Sequence record: NC_048845.1
Reading direction: 5' to 3' (one strand)
DNA from: Escherichia phage flopper
DNA length: 52,092 nt
Shown: positions 1 through 52,092 of the stretch, piece by piece
Position numbering within the stretch: position 1 is the stretch's first letter
Layout: each line of letters starts with the position of its first letter
The notes under the pieces: generated by a model
The model's input: the letters and a program-made list of their open reading frames with translations, nothing else
The model's database searches: none
Told to the model about the DNA's origin: nothing
Position numbers and translations under genes: made by a program

Positions 1-19
1 TCCAACTAATGTTTCAGAA
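1..19 (-). promoter_or_regulatory. conserved intergenic motif copy at the window edge
   Basis: TCCAACTAATGTTTCAGAA. Confidence 0.3.
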
Positions 20-80
20 TTATTCCAATATTCCAAACAAAAAGAATAATAAGAATAAATTAAATAAATGAAGAAAGTGC

Positions 81-110
81 TTGACACCCATTTGGCGATA
101 AGTGTATAAT
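81..110 (+). promoter_or_regulatory. near-consensus sigma70-type promoter on the plus strand (antisense to all genes)
   Basis: TTGACA (81-86), 18-nt spacer, TATAAT (105-110) with TG immediately upstream. Confidence 0.4.
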
Positions 111-140
111 GCCTTTCTTCCCTAAGTGGTCAGAATCAAA

Positions 141-158
141 TCCCACTAATGTTTCAGA
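141..158 (-). promoter_or_regulatory. conserved intergenic motif copy
   Basis: TCCCACTAATGTTTCAGA. Confidence 0.35.
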
Positions 159-220
159 CTAAAGCCGAAGGCCAATGCGAGTACAAACCCGCTTGGCACT
201 TCGAAGAAACCCGCCTGGAA

Positions 221-460
221 CTATAGTGTTTTCCAATCTGAGTCAAACAGCTCTTTCGGTCGTGTATAGATAGTAGAAGAGTCAATACTTAAGAAAGTGT
301 GGTCCCCGTACTTCTTCACTTCTTGGTAAGCAAACCCATCCACCCAACTTCCGCAGCGAGTTTTAATCTTTGTAGGCCCAAGAATACGATAGAAAGTGTT
401 TCGAGGCTGGTGGTGAACAATCAATCCAGCCTCAAGTTCAGCAATATTTAAATCACGCAT
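221..460 (-). CDS. hypothetical protein (start moved to internal ATG at 460)
   Basis: ORF 221..520 overlaps the upstream gene by 68 nt; the internal ATG at 460 gives an 8-nt ATGCGTGA start/stop overlap with the stop of 453..1001. Confidence 0.4.
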   Translation of the reverse strand: MRDLNIAELEAGLIVHHQPRNTFYRILGPTKIKTRCGSWVDGFAYQEVKKYGDHTFLSIDSSTIYTRPKELFDSDWKTL

Positions 461-1001
461 TTGAGAATAGTATCCCTTCGGAGAAAGTGTAGTCACTTCC
501 GTAATCTCTCGCAACTGCATCCCAATCGATATATGGACGAAGATGGTCTGGAACTTCTATGCCATCGTATTGCCGGAAGTAATCCGCAATTGAATCACAT
601 CGGGCAATAACCTTGTCGTTCAAGTCATCCACAGTGAAAATATCAATATCACCACTACGGAATGCTGCAAGAATTACATCCAAATCGGTGTCAACAAGCA
701 GCTCATTGAACTTATCATATTTACGGATGCTGAACAGTCCATTGGCAAAGCAAACTTCGGTAACATCCTCTTCGTTTGATTCAATTACGTCATATGTGCC
801 GTCTTCTGGATATTCAATGCCATATTCTTCATGCAAATAATCCCGCATGTCGAAATCATAGTGACGCCAAGACAGGCCATCAATCCACGCATCTACAAAT
901 TCAGAATTAGTTTCGCCTGTGTAGAAACGAACCAATAAGGTTTCATCTCTACGCCAGGACTTAAGTTGTTCCACTGCTTGAGTAATGTTATCGTTTTGCA
1001 T
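453..1001 (-). CDS. hypothetical highly acidic protein (D/E and aromatic rich)
   Basis: 182-aa ORF with high Asp/Glu content; no recognisable catalytic motif. Confidence 0.5.
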   Translation of the reverse strand: MQNDNITQAVEQLKSWRRDETLLVRFYTGETNSEFVDAWIDGLSWRHYDFDMRDYLHEEYGIEYPEDGTYDVIESNEEDVTEVCFANGLFSIRKYDKFNELLVDTDLDVILAAFRSGDIDIFTVDDLNDKVIARCDSIADYFRQYDGIEVPDHLRPYIDWDAVARDYGSDYTFSEGILFSNA

Positions 1002-1278
1002 TGAGTTTCTCCCAAGTACCTCTCAATTCTGTGTCCAGAATCTTAAGTTGATTGATTCGCTCATTCCCACCTTTGATAAGTGCACTGAGGATAGCAGCCT
1101 TCTCGTTGTAACTGACAGTGTAGACTACATCGTCAAGTTCCATAGTGTACTGCATCTTCTTTTCATCACCTACGTTAATTGATAGGTGCTGGTGGAGAAT
1201 ATTCTCTGCACGGATGGTTCTTGACTCCAGTGCATTCAACTCTCTTGGAATATCTTCGTAATTCATCGGATGCTCCAT
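988..1278 (-). CDS. hypothetical protein
   Basis: 96-aa ORF tightly packed with neighbours on the same strand. Confidence 0.45.
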   Translation of the reverse strand: MEHPMNYEDIPRELNALESRTIRAENILHQHLSINVGDEKKMQYTMELDDVVYTVSYNEKAAILSALIKGGNERINQLKILDTELRGTWEKLNAKR

Positions 1279-1286
1279 TGATTAAG

Positions 1287-1685
1287 TTATGCTGGAAGTT
1301 CGAAGTGCGGTGCGTCGAGGAACTTGGCCCATTTCACTGGCTTAGTGAAGGTCCGTTCCCATGTTCCGCCCCAACGAATAACAACTCCAAGCTCTTCTGC
1401 GGCTTTGAACATATGTTCAGCCACAGTTTGGAATCGTTCGAGGTCATTCCAGTCAATTGGATATGGTGCAATATCTAAAGCATTGCCTGACATGTGTCGG
1501 CTAACTGAAACTTTGGTTGCACCCTTCATTAACAGCTCTTGCTGACGCTCATAAGTGCGCAATCCTTCAAGAACAGTTACATCAAACGGCATTGTTTCAC
1601 ATGCACGCTTGAAAACTGCTACCAATGAGGGATTTACACCTTTGAGTCGGTCAAGTGAACGTTGGCCCAGTTTGACGTTAGACAT
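1287..1685 (-). CDS. peptidase M15-family peptidoglycan hydrolase (L-alanyl-D-glutamate peptidase-like)
   Basis: 132 aa with the SxHxxGxAxD zinc-binding signature (SRHMSGNALDIAP) and a size typical of small phage M15 endolysins; no signal peptide. Confidence 0.65.
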   Translation of the reverse strand: MSNVKLGQRSLDRLKGVNPSLVAVFKRACETMPFDVTVLEGLRTYERQQELLMKGATKVSVSRHMSGNALDIAPYPIDWNDLERFQTVAEHMFKAAEELGVVIRWGGTWERTFTKPVKWAKFLDAPHFELPA

Positions 1686-1947
1686 TTTTCAACTCCTGGT
1701 CCAAAGTTTCTTGCAGTGTTGCAAGTAAATTCTCAAGTGTTTCAACACGCTTTTCCAGTTCAGCAAGACGGTCTTCCTGAATCTGGATAAACTGTGCACG
1801 ATTCATTGAAAACCAGATATTGTCTGTGAACAGCTGGATTTCTTCGGACGTTGAGCCTTGCTCTTTCAGTGTTTTTACACGTTCTGAGTGAGTTGCAAGC
1901 TCTTGTTTTGCTGCCTCAAGATGGTCAGCTAGTTCTTCAACTTTCAC
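1678..1947 (-). CDS. hypothetical coiled-coil protein
   Basis: 89 aa with heptad-like Leu/Glu-rich sequence. Confidence 0.45.
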   Translation of the reverse strand: MKVEELADHLEAAKQELATHSERVKTLKEQGSTSEEIQLFTDNIWFSMNRAQFIQIQEDRLAELEKRVETLENLLATLQETLDQELKNV

Positions 1948-2170
1948 GGAATGGATTTCCTGTTGGGTTGATGGTTAATTTAAAAGATACAAGCTCCCGA
2001 TTGATTTCGGTTGTTCCTTCTACTGTGGCTGTAGTCAGAATAGCTGCATCTTTCCCTACTCGCTCCAAGAATTTAACTACTCGGTCGCGAATTACTGACC
2101 AGTGACGATATTCGCAACTGGATTCAAGTAAGTACGGTACTCCATCAATGGTAAATTCGGATGACGTCAT
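1937..2170 (-). CDS. hypothetical protein
   Basis: 77-aa ORF, same-strand packing. Confidence 0.4.
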   Translation of the reverse strand: MTSSEFTIDGVPYLLESSCEYRHWSVIRDRVVKFLERVGKDAAILTTATVEGTTEINRELVSFKLTINPTGNPFRES

Positions 2171-2517
2171 TTAACTTCCTTACAATATGTTGATAACAGT
2201 GGAAATTTGGCATGAAAGAAGTCAATGTCACGATAAATCTGTAGCACTAAACGTTCCTCAGCGTCAACACCAACTAAAGCCAGCTTACTGCTCTGTGTGT
2301 TATAGAACACTGTGGACATTGGGTTAGGATTCCCGTTATCTGGAACCTCAATCCAAGTACCTTCGTGCAAAGAAATTGTTGCAATGAGTGGCTGGCTCAT
2401 TGTAATTGTTTCAACGGACATTTTATATCCGCCACATTGAAAGTTTCGGACAGATGCTTCCGATTTGAATGCGAACACTCCAAATAAGATTGTCAGTGCA
2501 ATGTATAAAGTTTTCAC
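2167..2517 (-). CDS. hypothetical secreted protein
   Basis: N-terminal signal-peptide-like segment MKTLYIALTILFGVFAFKSEA followed by a polar domain. Confidence 0.5.
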   Translation of the reverse strand: MKTLYIALTILFGVFAFKSEASVRNFQCGGYKMSVETITMSQPLIATISLHEGTWIEVPDNGNPNPMSTVFYNTQSSKLALVGVDAEERLVLQIYRDIDFFHAKFPLLSTYCKEVK

Positions 2518-2705
2518 GGAATTAATGCCTCTGAACTATTTTAGATACAGTGTGTAACTTACCTTTATAAAGAATTGCACACCCAACTGTAATAAATTGT
2601 GTATTAAGTGTTGAAATTGGCTCGTCAACACCTTCAAGATAAATATCCCACATAAATCCTCCAATAATTAATCGAGGCCACTCGAAGTGGAATGACCTCT
2701 GTTAA

Positions 2706-3422
2706 TTACAGCTTCTTGATAAGCTCTGCGGATTTGCTTGCGGCAGCTTTCATTTCATCGCGTGCGGCTTTAGTGATTGATGCCTTGTCCACGCGAATGT
2801 TGCAGTTGCTGATTGCAATCTTGCCATCTTCTGTCGGTGCAAGCTGGGATAGTTCCAGCATTTGCTCCAGCTTTTGCAGAAGAATACGTTGTGCTTCAAT
2901 TGCATTTTGAATATTTAGAGTTTCCATAACTGCTCTTACCTTTCTTGAATAAGTTCCAGATAATGTCAGACGTACTTGCAAACCTTTTACGCCATCATAG
3001 TCAATATTGACTTTGTTGAATGGAGAATTTGGATGCTTGTACACATTTGTAACAGTTGCCCAATTGGCGTTGTACCAAATAACATCACCAACTTCCACAT
3101 CTTTTCCGAGAACATCTTCTTCATCGGATACTTTCTGCTTATTGAACTCTTCTACAGGAAGGAATACTGGAGTTACTATTGGAGTTATTTGGTTGGAAAA
3201 CTCAATTGTTGGAGTTTCCGAAGCTGGTGGCCTGTCCAACACTTTGACTATGCGCTCAAACTCAAAATTGTAATATCCACCAGAATATTGGAGTTGAACT
3301 ACAGAACTAAATCGTACAACCCTTTCAATTAAATATTCTCTGTTGCTGTATACTAGTACGTCCCCAGCTTTAACTAAATTGGCAGGTATTTCGACAAATT
3401 TATTTGCCATGATATTCCTCAC
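2706..3422 (-). CDS. hypothetical protein
   Basis: 238-aa ORF; start ambiguous (ATG at 3422 or 3410). Confidence 0.5.
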   Translation of the reverse strand: MRNIMANKFVEIPANLVKAGDVLVYSNREYLIERVVRFSSVVQLQYSGGYYNFEFERIVKVLDRPPASETPTIEFSNQITPIVTPVFLPVEEFNKQKVSDEEDVLGKDVEVGDVIWYNANWATVTNVYKHPNSPFNKVNIDYDGVKGLQVRLTLSGTYSRKVRAVMETLNIQNAIEAQRILLQKLEQMLELSQLAPTEDGKIAISNCNIRVDKASITKAARDEMKAAASKSAELIKKL

Positions 3423-3531
3423 GCATTGTTGAACAGTGTTTGCACACCCAAATGGTTACATAATCGTTTTCGTGTGAAATTTCCCAATTATGTAGCCCTA
3501 TAAAACATAGAATTTTCATAGGGCATCTCCA

Positions 3532-3906
3532 TTAGAACGGAATGTCGTCGTCGAAGTCTTTCGGCTCGTTCGGGTTGTAGTTGCTCTGCTGTTGTTGCTG
3601 AGCAGGTGCTTGCTGTTGTGCAGAAGGTTGCTGACGTTGCTGTTGCTGTTGAGCGGCAGCTTGAGGTTGAGCTTTGGCTTTAGCCTTCTCTTCACGCTTA
3701 CGCATCATTTCATCAACCTGTTCCTGAGTCATGATGGTTAATGCAAGTGAGGTAAACTCATTACCATTTGCTTGCTTGTTCCAACCAGATACCCAATACC
3801 AGATTCCGTCAACGTTAATACGCCCACGAATGTCGGGATGTTTTGGGTCTTTCTTGAAGCCGTTAGGACCGATGATGCCAGTGTTTACATCTGAATATTG
3901 TGCCAT
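3532..3906 (-). CDS. small SSB-like protein with SSB C-terminal tip
   Basis: 124 aa; Gln-rich linker and C-terminus NEPKDFDDDIPF, matching the E. coli SSB tail (...MDFDDDIPF); the N-terminal domain is only ~65 aa. Confidence 0.55.
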   Translation of the reverse strand: MAQYSDVNTGIIGPNGFKKDPKHPDIRGRINVDGIWYWVSGWNKQANGNEFTSLALTIMTQEQVDEMMRKREEKAKAKAQPQAAAQQQQQRQQPSAQQQAPAQQQQQSNYNPNEPKDFDDDIPF

Positions 3907-3982
3907 GATTAAGATTCTCTTAAGTTAATTACAGTTTAAGTTTCAGCGACATTGCTAACCACGGAATAGCTTTGTCCCTCTT

Positions 3983-4000
3983 ATCCAACTAATTGGATTA
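3983..4000 (-). promoter_or_regulatory. conserved intergenic motif copy upstream of the SSB-like gene
   Basis: TATCCAACTAATtgGAtt about 77 nt upstream of the start at 3906. Confidence 0.35.
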
Positions 4001-4031
4001 TTCGGGTACACTCGTAAATGCACCCTGATAA

Positions 4032-4565
4032 TCACTCAGATACAAATTTCTCAAACCTCGCTACTACAGCAGGGTCAAACAGGTTAAAACAAGGTATTCC
4101 AGACTGCACTGCAACCTGATATGCAGTGTTGGTGCCTCCGCTCACACCAGTTGATGTTGTCGGAGCATACAAGATACAGAACTTGGATGGGGTGTCTAAG
4201 TTAAGCCCAAGTACCTGACTAACATTTCGTGCCTGTAGTTTCCAAAATCCTCTGTATTTGTCGAGGTTTCTTGTCTCTTTCTTGTGAATTAGTGGGTTTA
4301 CGTTTTCAACACTTTGCAGGTATTCCCAATTTCGATTCAGGTCCGGCACTACGCCACCATAACTTCCAAAACCATTCCAAGGTATAAAGTTCTCTGTCCT
4401 TCCGTTGCAGCCAGCCAGGAATGCTTCGTCAGCACCTTGAGCACCTCCCGTACGAACTACCCAACCAAGTCTGGCCAGTTTGGAAGCCACTTTAGTCAGC
4501 AGTTCGCAAATATGCCCGGGAGTTTCACGACTTCCCACACCAGTGTAAAACATAAATACCTCCAA
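4032..4565 (-). CDS. SLOG/DprA-like Rossmann-fold protein
   Basis: GVGSRETP...(n)...VVRTGGAQGADEAF resembles the GxGSR...SGGAxGxD motif of the DprA/Smf/YpsA superfamily. Confidence 0.5.
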   Translation of the reverse strand: MEVFMFYTGVGSRETPGHICELLTKVASKLARLGWVVRTGGAQGADEAFLAGCNGRTENFIPWNGFGSYGGVVPDLNRNWEYLQSVENVNPLIHKKETRNLDKYRGFWKLQARNVSQVLGLNLDTPSKFCILYAPTTSTGVSGGTNTAYQVAVQSGIPCFNLFDPAVVARFEKFVSE

Positions 4566-7117: not shown

Positions 7118-7336
7118 TTAAACTTCAATTGACTCTTGAACTAAATCAGAAGCAGAGATTTCTTTAAACTCTTCCTCGGTAAAAGTTCTCTCATTGTCAT
7201 TTAATAAAACACCAATGCTAGAATCACCAACGAATACGGCATTTACATTAATGTCATCTTCCAAAACTTTTTGCAGATGTTCTCCGCCACGCGTAAAGAA
7301 GATTGCACCATCTTCCAAATCTTTAAAACGAGTCAC
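7118..7336 (-). CDS. hypothetical protein
   Basis: 72-aa ORF, first gene downstream of the 1.1-kb non-coding region. Confidence 0.4.
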   Translation of the reverse strand: MTRFKDLEDGAIFFTRGGEHLQKVLEDDINVNAVFVGDSSIGVLLNDNERTFTEEEFKEISASDLVQESIEV

Positions 7337-7530
7337 TTTATTCTCCTAAGTTAAAGAAAACTCCCTACAGAACGATTGTGGAGGTCTTGTCTTACCTCAA
7401 TCCACCTTAAAGTTGTAGGGAGTATGTGACACAGCAAGTGCCGAAGAACTACAATGATTAGCTTGGAGACATAATCTCTCTAAAATCTGTCACACAATTT
7501 CAGCAGAGTTTACAGAGATTTGGTCTTATT

Positions 7531-8360
7531 CACATGCAACTAATGATAAATGGACATGCTTAATTGCAACTAATTCATCTGCCAAATAGACGAATTTTGT
7601 CACAATTAAACATGCGTCATTAATTACAGGTTTACTCCCACACTTAACGTATTTGGCACATTAAGATTGGAGCAAGCAGGTACGGAAAACCGACCATGTA
7701 CAGCATAATAAAACTAATTAAATAAAGGGTTTTATCCCAATATTGTCACAATATTACATGCGATGATAAAGCCTTCGCTTGGCTGGAAGCCAGTATTCAT
7801 GCGGGTTGCAAGAATATTGGGTCAATACTGATACAGCTATTACATGCGAAATTGGCACAAATACTGTTACAAAATTAACATGCCAGATTGGTAGACGATT
7901 GTATCTTCGAGGTGATTAGTCCTCTAACAATTCTGCCACATTCCAACATGCCAATTTGTAGCAATATTTACATGCCATACTGCGACAATATTGTCACAAT
8001 ATTTGTTGCTCAAAATCGGGCGGGCTACGGGATTAGTTTCGCGGCTTTGCTCCGACTCTTCTCTTCTTTCGAATTCTGATTGAAAGAAAGAAGCATGTCC
8101 AAAAGTTCCAATATTACAAAAGTTATCTCCCGGCTTGTGGGTGGGCCTTTATAATAGGAGATGGAGCAATATTGTCGCAATTGAACATGCTTTAGTTGAA
8201 GAACAGTTTCGGATGATAATCCTACTTCACACATGGTTGCTGGAACTTTGTCCGGCCAAAGACAGGGAGTTCAATGATTGCCACATCATTACAACACTGT
8301 ATGTTTAGTTGACATGCTGAAATGTTTCTAGAATGATTTCAACATGACATGCGGAATACT
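7531..8360. repeat. cluster of at least 12 ACATGC half-site repeats in a non-coding region (candidate origin/regulatory region)
   Basis: Plus-strand ACATGC (often as ttACATGC / aACATGCc) recurs about 12 times in ~830 bp, plus aatattgtcacaatatt-type elements and a hairpin cttctttc-N11-gaaagaag near 8058-8095. Confidence 0.5.
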
Positions 8361-8381
8361 TCTCCGTATTCTGTTACTTCA

Positions 8382-8402
8382 CATCCAACTAATGTTACAG
8401 AT
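8382..8402 (-). promoter_or_regulatory. conserved intergenic motif copy at the edge of the ACATGC-rich region
   Basis: CATCCAACTAATGTTACAGAT. Confidence 0.35.
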
Positions 8403-8469
8403 GGCTACAATATTGAAGCCAGCTCTAAGATTAATTAGAACAAAAATAGGGAGCCGAAGCTCCCAAGTA

Positions 8470-8694
8470 TCAGAACGGTATCTCTGTATCAAAGTATCCA
8501 GAATTGTGTAGGAATGAGTGCAATAGTACATGCGACTCTTGTTTATATTCTGCTAACAATTCTAAGAAGTCTTTAGTCTCCTCCACTGTAGGACGAGATA
8601 AATTACTCATATCACAGGTGTGATGAGGATTGAAACAGTTTTCGATTTGATTGATTTGTTGAGTATTCATTGTAGTCTCCAAGTTTGTGGTCAT
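8470..8694 (-). CDS. hypothetical protein
   Basis: 74-aa ORF immediately downstream of the RNA polymerase gene. Confidence 0.35.
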   Translation of the reverse strand: MTTNLETTMNTQQINQIENCFNPHHTCDMSNLSRPTVEETKDFLELLAEYKQESHVLLHSFLHNSGYFDTEIPF

Positions 8695-8711: not shown

Positions 8712-10652
8712 TTATTGACAGAAGTAGTAAGCGTGTTCGCTCATCAGAAGCTCTTCGGTTACGATGTTCTCATGATACATCTGAATGCCACCAAGTTGCT
8801 TAGACAGATTCTCGAATTGATTGTTGGTTACGAAGATTTCAACATATGCTGCACGAATAACTTCCATCATGCGTGGAGCATCAGCTAAGCAGCAACGGAA
8901 ACAATCGTGGATTGAAGTAAAGCCACGAAGACCAGCTTCTTTAGCTTTAACTGCAACAGTACGAGCAACCAATGCGTCAATACCTTGGATGTAGTTAACA
9001 ACGAAGGTACGCTTGAACTCTTCTTTAGTTGGATTGGACTCACGAATGGTCCAAGGCTTATTCTCCTGAATCTGACCAAAGATGACACGAGTTTGAGAAT
9101 CAACACGAATGCTGAATGCCTCACAGATTTCACGAGATGGGAAGCAAGGCTTCATTACAACCTGACCATCAGTGTGGCGATATGTGATGTACTCTTTGCC
9201 AAGTTCAACACAACGGTTGTATGCAGCATCAGCAGCTTTCTCGATGAACATGTTAATCTTAGCACCCAATGCGTTATGGATTGCTTCTACACACAGTTCA
9301 GCAAATGCCTCAGCTTTCTCCATAGGAATCTGGAGAGCTTCTGTCATGTAGCTAATGAAGTCAGAAGAACCAGTCAATGCAGCTTTACCACCACCATATT
9401 GGATAGCCATGTATGGAGTTTTGATAAACTTACGACCAGCTTTCGGATTCAAGAATTCATCCATAATTTCAGGAGATGGCTTCATTGAAGAACGGTCTAA
9501 TAACTTCAACAGTTCACGAAGAGATAACTGGTATGGGTCAGATGCTTTAGTCTCAGAATCAACCAGACCTGTTGCACGAGCCATTTCCATGTTACCAGCA
9601 ATGAATGCCAGATATTGAGTACCAGAACATTTAGCATCTAAGCCAAAGCCTACACGAGAATCGCATTCACCTGTAGTCTCGAACTTGAACCAATCCAGAG
9701 CCAGACGAACATAAGTGAATGGCTTGGAAGGACGTTCAGCTTTAGGCATGTTCATCATGCGAGCAAGTGAACCAGCTGGATTCTGAGCAACATAAGTTAA
9801 ACGCTTAGCACTGCACCACTCACCACCGGAAATATCTTCCAGCTCTGCCATGAACATGTTGTATGCAATGGTAGTAGAACCATCTTCGTTAAACTTCTTA
9901 ACGATGTTCTCAACATTGTGAGAATACAAGCAACGAGCAAAGTCAGAGGATTGTGGGTTAGGACCAGCACATGCTACATGATACAGACGACCACGGTTAT
10001 CAGCGAAGTAGTCAGAATACAGCTTATCCTGATTCATCATTGCTACAGCATTGTTCCAAACATGAAGTTCAGTCTGGATTGCTTCTGGCACCTGCAAGCC
10101 ACCATAAGTACGTTGCTCAAGCATGGACTGGATGATGCGAACCATCTCAGTCTCCACATGGTACTCAGTATCTTGCAGGAATTCGATTGCAGCTTTCAGA
10201 GTTTTGGATGGCTTAACTTTGCCACCTTTAACGAAAGGCTTGCGACGAGATTCAGATGTAACACGCTCAGTGAATGGCACTGCTGTGTCTTTGGTTGTAA
10301 CCAGTTCAACCCATGTATCAGTTTGTTGGAATGACTTGTCTTCGTTCATGGTGATGAATCCAAAGTGCTTAGCCAAACCAATGAGGTTGATAGCTGGGTC
10401 AACATAGTGCATTGCTTTCAAATCGTTGTTATAACGGTTGGCATCAGCAATAGAAGCAGAAGCCAGCTCAACCATCGCGATGGCAGGAACAACGTCATCA
10501 CGAGTGAAAGACGTCATCATCTTGAAGATGGCTAAGGCAGCAATAGCACAAGTCTGTGGCTGCATATAGTTCTGTTTCTCTTTGGCACGATATACCAGAG
10601 CAGTGATAGCAGGAACAACGGATTTGATAGTTTGAGTGGTGATAGTAGTCAT
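8712..10652 (-). CDS. single-subunit (T7-like) DNA-directed RNA polymerase, short form
   Basis: 646 aa with motif A-like DAKCSGTQYLAFIAG, motif B-like RKFIKTPYMAIQYGGG and motif C-like IHDCFRCCLAD; GGAG RBS 8 nt upstream of the ATG. Confidence 0.8.
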   Translation of the reverse strand: MTTITTQTIKSVVPAITALVYRAKEKQNYMQPQTCAIAALAIFKMMTSFTRDDVVPAIAMVELASASIADANRYNNDLKAMHYVDPAINLIGLAKHFGFITMNEDKSFQQTDTWVELVTTKDTAVPFTERVTSESRRKPFVKGGKVKPSKTLKAAIEFLQDTEYHVETEMVRIIQSMLEQRTYGGLQVPEAIQTELHVWNNAVAMMNQDKLYSDYFADNRGRLYHVACAGPNPQSSDFARCLYSHNVENIVKKFNEDGSTTIAYNMFMAELEDISGGEWCSAKRLTYVAQNPAGSLARMMNMPKAERPSKPFTYVRLALDWFKFETTGECDSRVGFGLDAKCSGTQYLAFIAGNMEMARATGLVDSETKASDPYQLSLRELLKLLDRSSMKPSPEIMDEFLNPKAGRKFIKTPYMAIQYGGGKAALTGSSDFISYMTEALQIPMEKAEAFAELCVEAIHNALGAKINMFIEKAADAAYNRCVELGKEYITYRHTDGQVVMKPCFPSREICEAFSIRVDSQTRVIFGQIQENKPWTIRESNPTKEEFKRTFVVNYIQGIDALVARTVAVKAKEAGLRGFTSIHDCFRCCLADAPRMMEVIRAAYVEIFVTNNQFENLSKQLGGIQMYHENIVTEELLMSEHAYYFCQ

Positions 10653-10899: not shown

Positions 10900-11115
10900 T
10901 CAAAAAATAAAAATTAATATTGCCACAATTCTAGTCTCGTTAATATTGAAACAATTTGAGTCTCATTAATTCTGTAGCAATATTGAAAATAAAAAAAAAA
11001 ATTATAAAAAAAAATTATTTCATAGTCGGACTTCTGTTCGAACAAATTTCGGCGAGATACAGCTGACCGACCATGAACGAATTTCTATCCAGGTACAGTT
11101 GACCGACCATGTACC
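10900..11115. repeat. A-tract plus 13-bp direct repeats between nrdB and the RNAP gene
   Basis: aaaaaaaaaattataaaaaaaaattattt (about 10981-11010); tgaccgaccatg x2 (about 11063-11075 and 11100-11112); tagcaatattg elements. Confidence 0.45.
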
Positions 11116-11259
11116 ATTTGGTTTTAACTTTACGCATTCCTAATATTACTCTTAATATTGTAGCAATATTGGGAATAAATAAATATTTAATTTACTTGTT
11201 TTATTCTAGTTCAAAGAGAAACGACGCTAACGCATCGAATCTCTTCTCACATTTAATCG

Positions 11260-51171: not shown

Positions 51172-51452
51172 TTGCGAGTTGCGATTTGCATGGACTTGTT
51201 TGGGCCGTAGTAGAAATATTTCTTAACTTCGGCAAGGGTGTAGTTGGCACTGCTTTCCAGCAACTCCTTGAAGGTGTGTTTCCAGAATCCGTCTTTCTCA
51301 GACAGACTTACGTGGAAAGAATTAGTGCCGTTATAGTACCAACGCCCACCAACGAGAACGAAGTGGATTGTTTCTTCCTCTCCTTCCCCACTTGAAGGTA
51401 ACATTAGGACATTTCTCAACGTCAAAACTTTAGCAGAATGCTTGCGAATCAT
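51132..51452 (-). CDS. hypothetical early protein (start moved to internal ATG with GGAGA RBS)
   Basis: ATG at 51452 is preceded by GGAGAGTTCCT; the longer ORF to 51590 has no RBS. Confidence 0.45.
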   Translation of the reverse strand: MIRKHSAKVLTLRNVLMLPSSGEGEEETIHFVLVGGRWYYNGTNSFHVSLSEKDGFWKHTFKELLESSANYTLAEVKKYFYYGPNKSMQIATRNWTTNQPIYGVPF

Positions 51453-52092
51453 AGGAACTCTCCAATTTTTCGATTCAGTGTTTGTGACTTCTCTTCTCAT
51501 CTTTTGGCCAGGAACAGGCCACAGGGTAGCGCAGGAAGGCCGAAAATCGGGCCGCTGCCTACCGTTTGTGTCAATTCTGGATAACTGCATTGGTGAAGGG
51601 TTACTCCCGTTAGGGGTGCGATACGCTAATCACATGAGTGTCGTCGCCTTGCGGCTCAGGCGTGTCACAGAGGCTTTGCAACCCTTCCCAATACATTCAC
51701 CCAATCCACCTGCTTTGGCATAGCTGGTGGCGCGGTTTTGTGCGGATTATGCCACTCTAAGCCCTGTTTGTCCGACTTCCTCAGAGCACCAGCAGCTTGT
51801 GGCACAAACCTATTTTCGAATGACTAACATAAGCATGAGGCATTACCCTCTAATTATTCAGCCCTAACAGCTTGCTTATTTAGTTCCAATTCATCCCAAT
51901 ACATCGCCTATAACAAGTGAATAGCTTTTCTGCGAATAAGTATTCCGGCCCTTTGGCCTATGTTAAAAGATAAATGTATATGATGGAAACATTCCATCTG
52001 AAAGCAAACTAACTTCCCACAGGCATCGAACCTGTAATCCAGTGTAGATTTCTACACGAAGCAGTTTGCTTACACGATGTTGTCTCTTCAAT

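Follow-up and report, generated by a model that had tools for sequence, protein, structure and literature searches.

In the 52,092-nt stretch of phage DNA analysed here (the window), a promoter sequence of the host sigma-70 type with both hexamers perfect, TTGACA-N18-TATAAT, lies at 81-110 on the plus strand (TTGACACCCATTTGGCGATAAGTGTATAAT; 6/6 and 6/6 matches, 18-nt spacer), pointing against every gene, as an earlier sequence-only reading had noticed. No base of either hexamer differs in any of the 20 relatives in which the spacer between them is 17-18 nt long, a set that spans six genera and in which the spacers themselves differ. Judged from this pattern, the site is very probably a functional host (sigma-70) promoter that is under selection throughout the Cleopatravirinae, and the selection so indicated strongly supports the interpretation as a promoter given in that reading. 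By the same comparisons 81-110 is the best-conserved regulatory signal that we found in these genomes. We predict that it acts as a promoter, and propose below that it does so in concert with a phage promoter that faces it.

The Chaseviridae are myoviruses with a T7-like RNA polymerase whose transcription programme is essentially unknown; according to the ICTV profile of the family, their promoters have not yet been identified (PMC12842549), and a literature search found no transcriptome of any member. The antisense promoter is marked in none of the annotated public records of relatives that we compared, and the annotation of SA91KD shows only phage promoters and terminators in the region. Such a promoter would be a precise, mutable handle on the division of work between host and phage polymerases and possibly on the start of replication, and a strong promoter placed head-to-head with an orthogonal phage promoter would also be of interest for synthetic circuits. 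Should it prove to be merely a modest antisense promoter, it would still be a useful annotation missing from the public records compared.

The window, the site and its neighbours

The window is a genome of the genus Carltongylesvirus (Cleopatravirinae, Chaseviridae) with a T7-like RNA polymerase, and megablast of positions 1-3000 gave 44 phage records at 82-94% identity, all of them related to Escherichia phages phiEcoM-GJ1 and ST32. It is a circular permutation of the usual map, and because its end joins its start exactly as in the relatives, the phage promoter 5 of GJ1 is split over the junction. The claim that every predicted gene is on the minus strand was borne out: 25 of the 27 open reading frames (ORFs) of at least 200 aa are on that strand and the other two overlap longer minus-strand ORFs, and the annotated relatives have a single gene orientation throughout, which corresponds to the minus strand of the window (PMC6266442). 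The annotation of GJ1 gives nine phage promoters and one sense-strand host promoter, TTGACG-N18-TATTAT, upstream of the polymerase gene. Scanning of the whole window for tRNA and tmRNA genes found none, and Rfam at gathering score gave no match over the same length; in the part of the map where GJ1 and ST32 have a 95-nt tRNA-Arg (possibly intron-bearing) and PM1 a tRNA-Cys, the window is without a tRNA gene. The public record PP952070.1 bears the title 'Staphylococcus phage Pel53' and gives Staphylococcus hyicus as host. Its identity to this coliphage group is 88% over 3 kb and 96.6% over 1-260, and the host label looks doubtful.

The features around the site are as follows, in window coordinates:

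1-18, minus strand: phage-polymerase promoter P5 ('putative phage promoter 5' of GJ1), motif at 2-18, annotated in GJ1 and SA91KD
52088-52092 plus 1-15, minus strand: the P5 20-mer, AAACATTAGTTGGAATTGAA, which spans the window junction
20-80, no strand: AT-rich spacer (80% A+T over 21-80) between the sigma-70 promoter and P5, upstream of both
70-120, minus strand: predicted long hairpin in the sense RNA that takes in the sigma-70 promoter from end to end, with a U-rich tract after it (-17.8 kcal/mol, z = -3.2)
81-86, plus strand: -35 hexamer TTGACA (6/6), invariant in 20/20 genomes with a 17-18 nt spacer
87-104, plus strand: 18-nt spacer, more variable than any other part of the promoter (pairwise difference 0.082)
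105-110, plus strand: -10 hexamer TATAAT (6/6), invariant in 20/20 genomes and always followed by G
116-119, plus strand: predicted start of the host-polymerase transcript, from the usual distance of 7 +/- 1 nt past the -10 hexamer
135-154, minus strand: phage-polymerase promoter P4 ('putative phage promoter 4' of GJ1, AAACATTAGTGGGATTTGAT), face-to-face with the sigma-70 promoter
166-203, minus strand: terminator-like hairpin (predicted fold) at the end of the ArdA unit, annotated in SA91KD as a rho-independent terminator
221-460, minus strand: 79-aa gene, last of the upstream unit, without a Pfam match; the first gene under the putative antisense transcript
453-1001, minus strand: ArdA-like antirestriction gene (Pfam ArdA at E = 6e-4, which falls short of the curated cut-off; annotated in relatives as antirestriction protein)

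Within the window the site is the only one with at most one mismatch at 18-nt spacing, and the only 12/12 match at spacers of 16-18 on both strands, where 0.043 are expected from base composition; among first-order Markov shuffles, 1.3% hold a 12/12 site on the plus strand and 0.3% on the minus strand. The spacer length of 18 bp lies within the 17 +/- 1 bp usual for sigma-70 (it is 17 bp in the relative PYps23T), and the canonical TGn of an extended -10 element is absent. The predicted start is less typical: bases 116-119 are pyrimidines, and the seventh base past the -10 hexamer is C in the window and in PM1, where a purine is usual and where Faunus, phiA050 and 4HA13 have G or A. A pyrimidine at the predicted start in Carltongylesvirus and Suwonvirus counts against the interpretation as a promoter.

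Read in gene direction, the elements follow one another as ArdA-like gene, 79-aa gene, terminator hairpin, P4, reverse complement of the sigma-70 promoter, AT-rich stretch and P5, an order by which the host promoter diverges from P5 over the AT-rich repeats and converges on P4. The -10 hexamer ends at 110 and the P4 20-mer occupies 135-154 on the opposite strand, a convergent geometry found in all genera examined, and the two predicted starts, ~117 for the host enzyme and ~142-144 for P4, would be ~25 bp apart. The path of a P4 transcript leads through the sigma-70 promoter and the AT-rich region, and P5 reads away from that region into a ~640-nt noncoding leader. Phage-promoter motifs number seven in the window against 0.33 expected, six of them in gene orientation.

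The AT-rich spacer contains direct TTATTCC/ATATTCC copies at 20-26 and 28-34 and inverted AGAATAA copies at 43-49 and 52-58. Repeat number is higher than the window's 2+2 in Faunus, 4HA13 and phiA050 (up to ~9 in Faunus), and inverted copies of the TATTCC/GAATAA type (AGAATAA/GGAATAA) are found upstream of the host promoter in the same place in other genera. These repeats look like iterons or protein-binding sites. Within the genus the AT-rich stretch has a mean pairwise difference of 0.035, compared with 0.18 for the flanking genes. A minus-strand ORF starting at 93, which some relatives have annotated as a CDS, was rejected as a gene; it is shortened to 23 aa here (read by eye) and its frame is not kept.

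Conservation of the hexamers and what might maintain them

The 20 genomes are those of 15 Carltongylesvirus phages together with Faunus (Erwinia), phiA050 (Aeromonas), 4HA13 (Escherichia; Sabourvirus), PM1 (Pectobacterium; Suwonvirus) and PA_03 (Proteus; Myducvirus); PP101 (Pectobacterium; Suwonvirus), which was read apart from the 20, is the same as PM1. Outside Carltongylesvirus similarity at the DNA level ends after the first ~60 nt and the ArdA proteins are only 26-39% identical to that of the window, and the site nevertheless keeps its position and its antisense strand in Faunus, phiA050, 4HA13, PM1, PP101 and PA_03. Over the first five genera compared, 12/12 hexamer columns are invariant as against 5/18 in the spacer (TTT at spacer positions 5-7 and TG at 17-18), the upstream flank is A/T-rich in every genus compared, and the base after the -10 hexamer is always G. 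A phage-promoter core lies downstream of the site and convergent with it in every genus examined, 31-45 nt past the -10 hexamer in the five other genera with a P4-like core at close range and ~130 nt past it in Loessnervirus. A scan of IMG/VR with the conserved TTATTCCAATATTCCAAA returned mostly the same isolates and unrelated matches, with a gain of one new genome.

A similar picture emerges within the genus: neither hexamer varies at all (mean pairwise difference 0.000 in each), the spacer differs by 0.082 on average and the remainder of 1-220 by 0.02-0.10, compared with 0.18 for the pair of flanking genes and 0.31 for third codon positions of ArdA. In 34 records identity over positions 1-260 amounts to 95-98.5%, as against 82-94% over the flanking 3 kb (86.5% for the Yersinia phages among them). 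Since the carriers infect five gamma-proteobacterial host genera that have the sigma-70 consensus in common, the pattern fits selection for recognition by the host holoenzyme. One 12/12 site is expected in ~1-4% of random sequences of this size, which is the argument for a chance match carried along by linkage; hexamers that stay perfect in six genera despite diverged spacers and flanks argue against it, and because they are intact in the 20 relatives while the spacers differ, we consider chance to be excluded for practical purposes.

A different possibility is that the hexamers are kept for a reason other than sigma-70, either as part of a hairpin in the sense RNA (an RNase III site, or a pause or terminator) or as a protein-binding site, in which case the promoter likeness would be incidental or secondary. 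This we regard as improbable, though there is structure on the minus strand to be accounted for. The hairpin predicted at 70-120, with its z of -3.2 and the U-rich tract after it, covers the promoter, and the spacer holds an imperfect inverted repeat, ACACCCAT...ATAAGTGT at 84-91 / 98-105, that pairs in full only as minus-strand RNA or DNA, by way of two G.U pairs. These two pairs, in the upper stem ACACUUAU/AUGGGUGU, become C.A mismatches on the plus strand, and the stem is 100% paired on the minus strand in six genus variants, a result equalled by 77 of 500 shuffles. Inverted repeats in the spacer exceed those of shuffles in four genera (the window, Faunus, phiA050 and 4HA13; P = 0.003-0.07) and do not in PM1 and PA_03, the Fisher combination over six genera being ~2e-4. 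In some genera the spacer thus seems to do something more, the simplest candidate being a hairpin in RNA transcribed from P4, which recalls T7, where the RNase III site R1.1 lies between the promoters phi1.1A and phi1.1B. As an explanation of the hexamers, however, the hairpin fails: they fall for the most part in an internal loop, a place where no constraint that we know of would hold a sequence constant, and PM1 and PA_03, in which the hairpin is missing, have them all the same. The lower stem is without covariation support (variation breaks its pairs within the genus, and it is absent in other genera). It is also very unlikely that any such structure would incidentally yield a 12/12 consensus at a constant 18 nt in six genera.

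Loessnervirus bears on both sides of this question. In Fifi44, Y2, SSEM1 and Calisson, TTGACA and TATAAT (TAAAAT in Calisson) stand 8 nt apart, at about 2590-2615 of the compared sequence in Fifi44, which places them outside the 17 +/- 1 bp of sigma-70 and makes the pair of no use to that enzyme; the 8-nt spacers are variable, the AT-rich repeat region is absent, and the impression is of a spacer that has lost its second half by deletion. With it the hairpin has gone and the hexamers have stayed, which speaks against the hairpin as the reason for their conservation. Yet a spacing of 8 nt is unusable for a -35/-10 pair, so that a function other than that of a canonical promoter may hold the hexamers there. 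The best alternative -35 in Fifi44 matches at 3/6, while a canonical TGn extended -10 is present in SSEM1 and Calisson. Either this genus has a weakened promoter whose -35 hexamer is slowly decaying, or the hexamers have a reader other than sigma-70. In the Nefertitivirinae (PVN03, pAh6-C and Spp001) no site of at least 11/12 occurs on either strand of the 10 kb around the gp28 homologue.

The plus-strand transcript and its possible roles

The sequence-only reading had offered two products for the promoter, a plus-strand small RNA from 111 to about 220 or an antisense RNA over the gene at 221-460. The former found no support on closer analysis. A strong promoter followed by ~100 nt of noncoding DNA before the next gene is what a small RNA gene would look like, and the predicted fold of plus-strand RNA 116-300 is somewhat more stable than those of shuffles (z = -2.3). 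But no plus-strand intrinsic terminator was found in 1-3000, and Rfam searched at E up to 5 on 1-500 gave only CrcZ, at 16 bits vs 95, a spurious match. The conserved parts of 135-203 are already accounted for by the minus-strand phage promoter (135-154) and the minus-strand terminator hairpin (166-203), the latter having no T-run on the plus strand, and the stretch as a whole differs widely in length and sequence between genera. Two short plus-strand ORFs, both read by eye, at 175-273 (32 aa) and from 151 (25 aa), were rejected as coding because they have no ribosome-binding site and indels in GJ1 and SA91KD break their frame. Given that no terminator, Rfam family or ORF remains and that 135-203 is otherwise explained, there is no support for a defined small RNA at 111-220, and a discrete trans-acting small RNA gene at ~117-220 appears very improbable.

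The antisense product fares better. A run-on RNA over 221-460 and ArdA, from an unterminated start near 117, is plausible from the arrangement of the sequence, and its length would be expected to be set by Rho or by collisions. Against it, an antisense RNA to ArdA, which is required immediately upon infection, makes little obvious sense.

The best explanation we can offer, at a confidence just short of evenly balanced, is that of a selected host promoter acting in cis, through convergent transcription or through run-on antisense RNA; the mechanism of cis-interference or antisense action, taken for itself, we propose with slightly more reserve. Host RNA polymerase would bind 81-110, start near 117 on the gene-free strand and meet P4 (135-154) head-on, and its transcript would run on unterminated and noncoding, antisense to the 3' end of the ArdA unit. 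The element would then work as a partner of P4 in a convergent arrangement linking the two polymerases: early, while the host polymerase is active, P4 would be occupied or fired across and the antisense RNA made, and later the phage polymerase firing from P4 would sweep the host polymerase off. What the comparisons show is the sequence of the site, its uniqueness in the genome, its conservation and how it is placed relative to P4, P5 and the AT-rich repeats; that it is transcribed, where the RNA starts and what becomes of it, and which way and to what end the polymerases interfere are all inferred. As the distance to P4 varies from 31 to ~130 nt, strict steric occlusion is not the conserved feature.

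Mutual interference is known for convergent promoters, sigma-70/T7 pairs among them (PMC4889929, PMC5001618, PMC5423467), and a conserved antisense promoter is known from other phages that combine a single-subunit polymerase with genes on one strand, namely LUZ19 and all phiKMV-likes (PMC10914365) and LUZ100 (PMC10134795). We favour a cis-acting role on the strength of these two lines of precedent. The closest likeness is to the conserved antisense promoter of the phiKMV-likes (P001 of LUZ19) and to the antisense RNAs of LUZ100 and LUZ7, phages that also have a single-subunit polymerase, genes on one strand and a conserved promoter pointing the opposite way (PMC10914365, PMC10134795); P001 too is genus-wide, gives a noncoding antisense transcript (predicted in our case) and has been proposed to block or modulate sense transcription. 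It differs in being read by the phage polymerase and in lying in the early region, directed towards a genome end, whereas the promoter described here has the host sigma-70 consensus, faces a phage promoter and adjoins AT-rich repeats. In the pR/pL pair of coliphage 186 and in engineered sigma-70/T7 pairs the convergent starts are likewise tens of bp apart, and firing at one promoter dislodges or occludes polymerase at the other (PMC5001618, PMC5423467, PMC4889929). Both promoters of 186 are read by host polymerase and serve the decision between lysis and lysogeny, while the pair in the window would involve two different polymerases in a strictly lytic phage, with a proposed interference between them. 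What appears to be new here is a conserved antisense phage promoter that has the consensus of the host enzyme and is paired with a phage promoter. The oop RNA of lambda, a short terminated antisense RNA of a temperate phage that uses host polymerase only, resembles the predicted transcript in its sigma-70 promoter directed against the gene flow and in its complementarity to the 3' end of the upstream gene; the window promoter differs in having no terminator and in belonging to a phage with its own polymerase.

The chief rival to a role in cis, and one that is not mutually exclusive with it, is a T7-like primary replication origin in which an AT-rich unwinding region with repeats lies between P4 and P5. 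Transcription from the host promoter would assist its opening, by the negative supercoiling left in the polymerase's wake, or would provide RNA to prime synthesis running the other way. The T7 primary origin was reportedly described by Saito et al. in 1980 (cited in PMC12839067) as tandem phi1.1A/phi1.1B promoters followed by an A/T-rich cluster, and it is not known to contain or to need a host promoter, which is both a difference from the window and a point against the origin as the reason for the host promoter. The tandem arrangement itself is found here, with P4 at 135-154, 80% A+T at 21-80 and P5 at 1-18, that is, a phage promoter, an AT-rich stretch 60-120 nt downstream and a second phage promoter. 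The likeness extends to an intervening hairpin and to a position ahead of genes of DNA metabolism; the block leading on to the replication genes lies downstream of the site. T7-type replication proteins are present as well, since the Chaseviridae have a T7-type primase/helicase and DNA polymerase (PMC12842549). The iteron-like TATTCC/GAATAA repeats, whose copy number varies between genera, and the unusual constraint on this noncoding DNA would also suit an origin. The arrangement is looser elsewhere, however: clear TATTCC repeats are missing in PM1, PP101 and PA_03, the P5-like promoter is ~300 nt away in PM1 and PP101, and Loessnervirus, without any AT-rich repeat region, does not have the arrangement at all. 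GC/AT skew is monotone along the window and locates no origin, which is uninformative because all genes are on one strand. On balance we consider an origin unlikely, and place the cis-acting host promoter before it.

Other antisense sites and noncoding regions

Sites with a sigma-70 match of at least 10/12 are absent from the gene strand of the window, against 6.7 +/- 2.6 expected (not one of 300 shuffles was without such a site), and number eight on the antisense strand, a bias that suggests that host promoters are avoided in the sense direction. In GJ1 (50 kb) there are two sense and six antisense sites. Three of the eight antisense sites of the window face a phage promoter at short range, namely 81-110, which faces P4, and the following two:

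7426-7455, plus strand: GTGACA-N18-TACAAT (10/12), facing P2 near 7533-7550, in a noncoding leader
8309-8337, plus strand: TTGACA-N17-AATGAT (10/12), facing P1 at 8385-8401, in a noncoding leader just past the phage polymerase gene

The second of these would yield an RNA antisense to the phage RNA polymerase gene. GJ1 has the same P1- and P2-facing antisense sites, and 3/6 of its antisense sites lie at most 125 nt downstream of one of its nine annotated promoters, in 2.25% of the sequence; the chance of this placement is ~2e-4 by a rough estimate from a post hoc test. No P1- or P2-facing antisense site of at least 10/12 was found in 4HA13, PM1 or Faunus, and a general rule that each phage promoter is faced by a host promoter was discarded, as it is confined to P1, P2 and P4 in Carltongylesvirus.

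These sites allow a more speculative form of the cis-acting model, which we think unlikely, in which a consensus host promoter and the phage promoter facing it make up a switch for the hand-over between polymerases and may in addition license a T7-like origin. Each of three leaders of this genus (after the polymerase gene, after P2 and after P4) would have a host promoter aimed back at a phage promoter, from which host polymerase would make RNA antisense to the unit upstream, with the phage polymerase gene among its targets, and would keep the phage promoter shut until phage polymerase had accumulated sufficiently to sweep it away. If true, this would be a timing circuit built on the collision of two different polymerases; a literature search found no such circuit for phages with a single-subunit polymerase.

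Several noncoding regions were observed alongside. The leader that continues from P5 over the junction towards the next gene (51456-52092, minus strand) is ~640 nt without a credible ORF and is conserved across Cleopatravirinae genera. Its fold has a z of -3.98, and in a cross-genus alignment of its 3' domain 22/48 predicted pairs show compensatory changes, including those of a long-range helix; by this modelling it looks like a large structured RNA. Rfam gave no match up to E 5 for 51300-52092, and the 5' end of the leader looks tRNA-like (T-arm ACAGGTTCGATGCCTGT), ARAGORN calling nothing there. A second such region, ~1.1 kb after the polymerase gene (window ~7336-8470), is nearly ORF-free on the gene strand and holds P1 and P2; it is matched by unannotated gaps at 2848-4046 in GJ1, 2630-3838 in 4HA13 and 2150-3372 in PM1. 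Upstream of the polymerase gene (8712-10652), the minus strand at 10900-11200 reaches 90% A+T in 60 nt and carries the repeated CAATATTGCTACA and GAGACTAGAATTGTGG. This region corresponds to that of the sole host promoter annotated in GJ1, of which the window's copy in the sense direction, TTAACG-N18-TATTAA (~8/12, read by eye), is a far weaker match to the consensus than the antisense promoter at 81-110.
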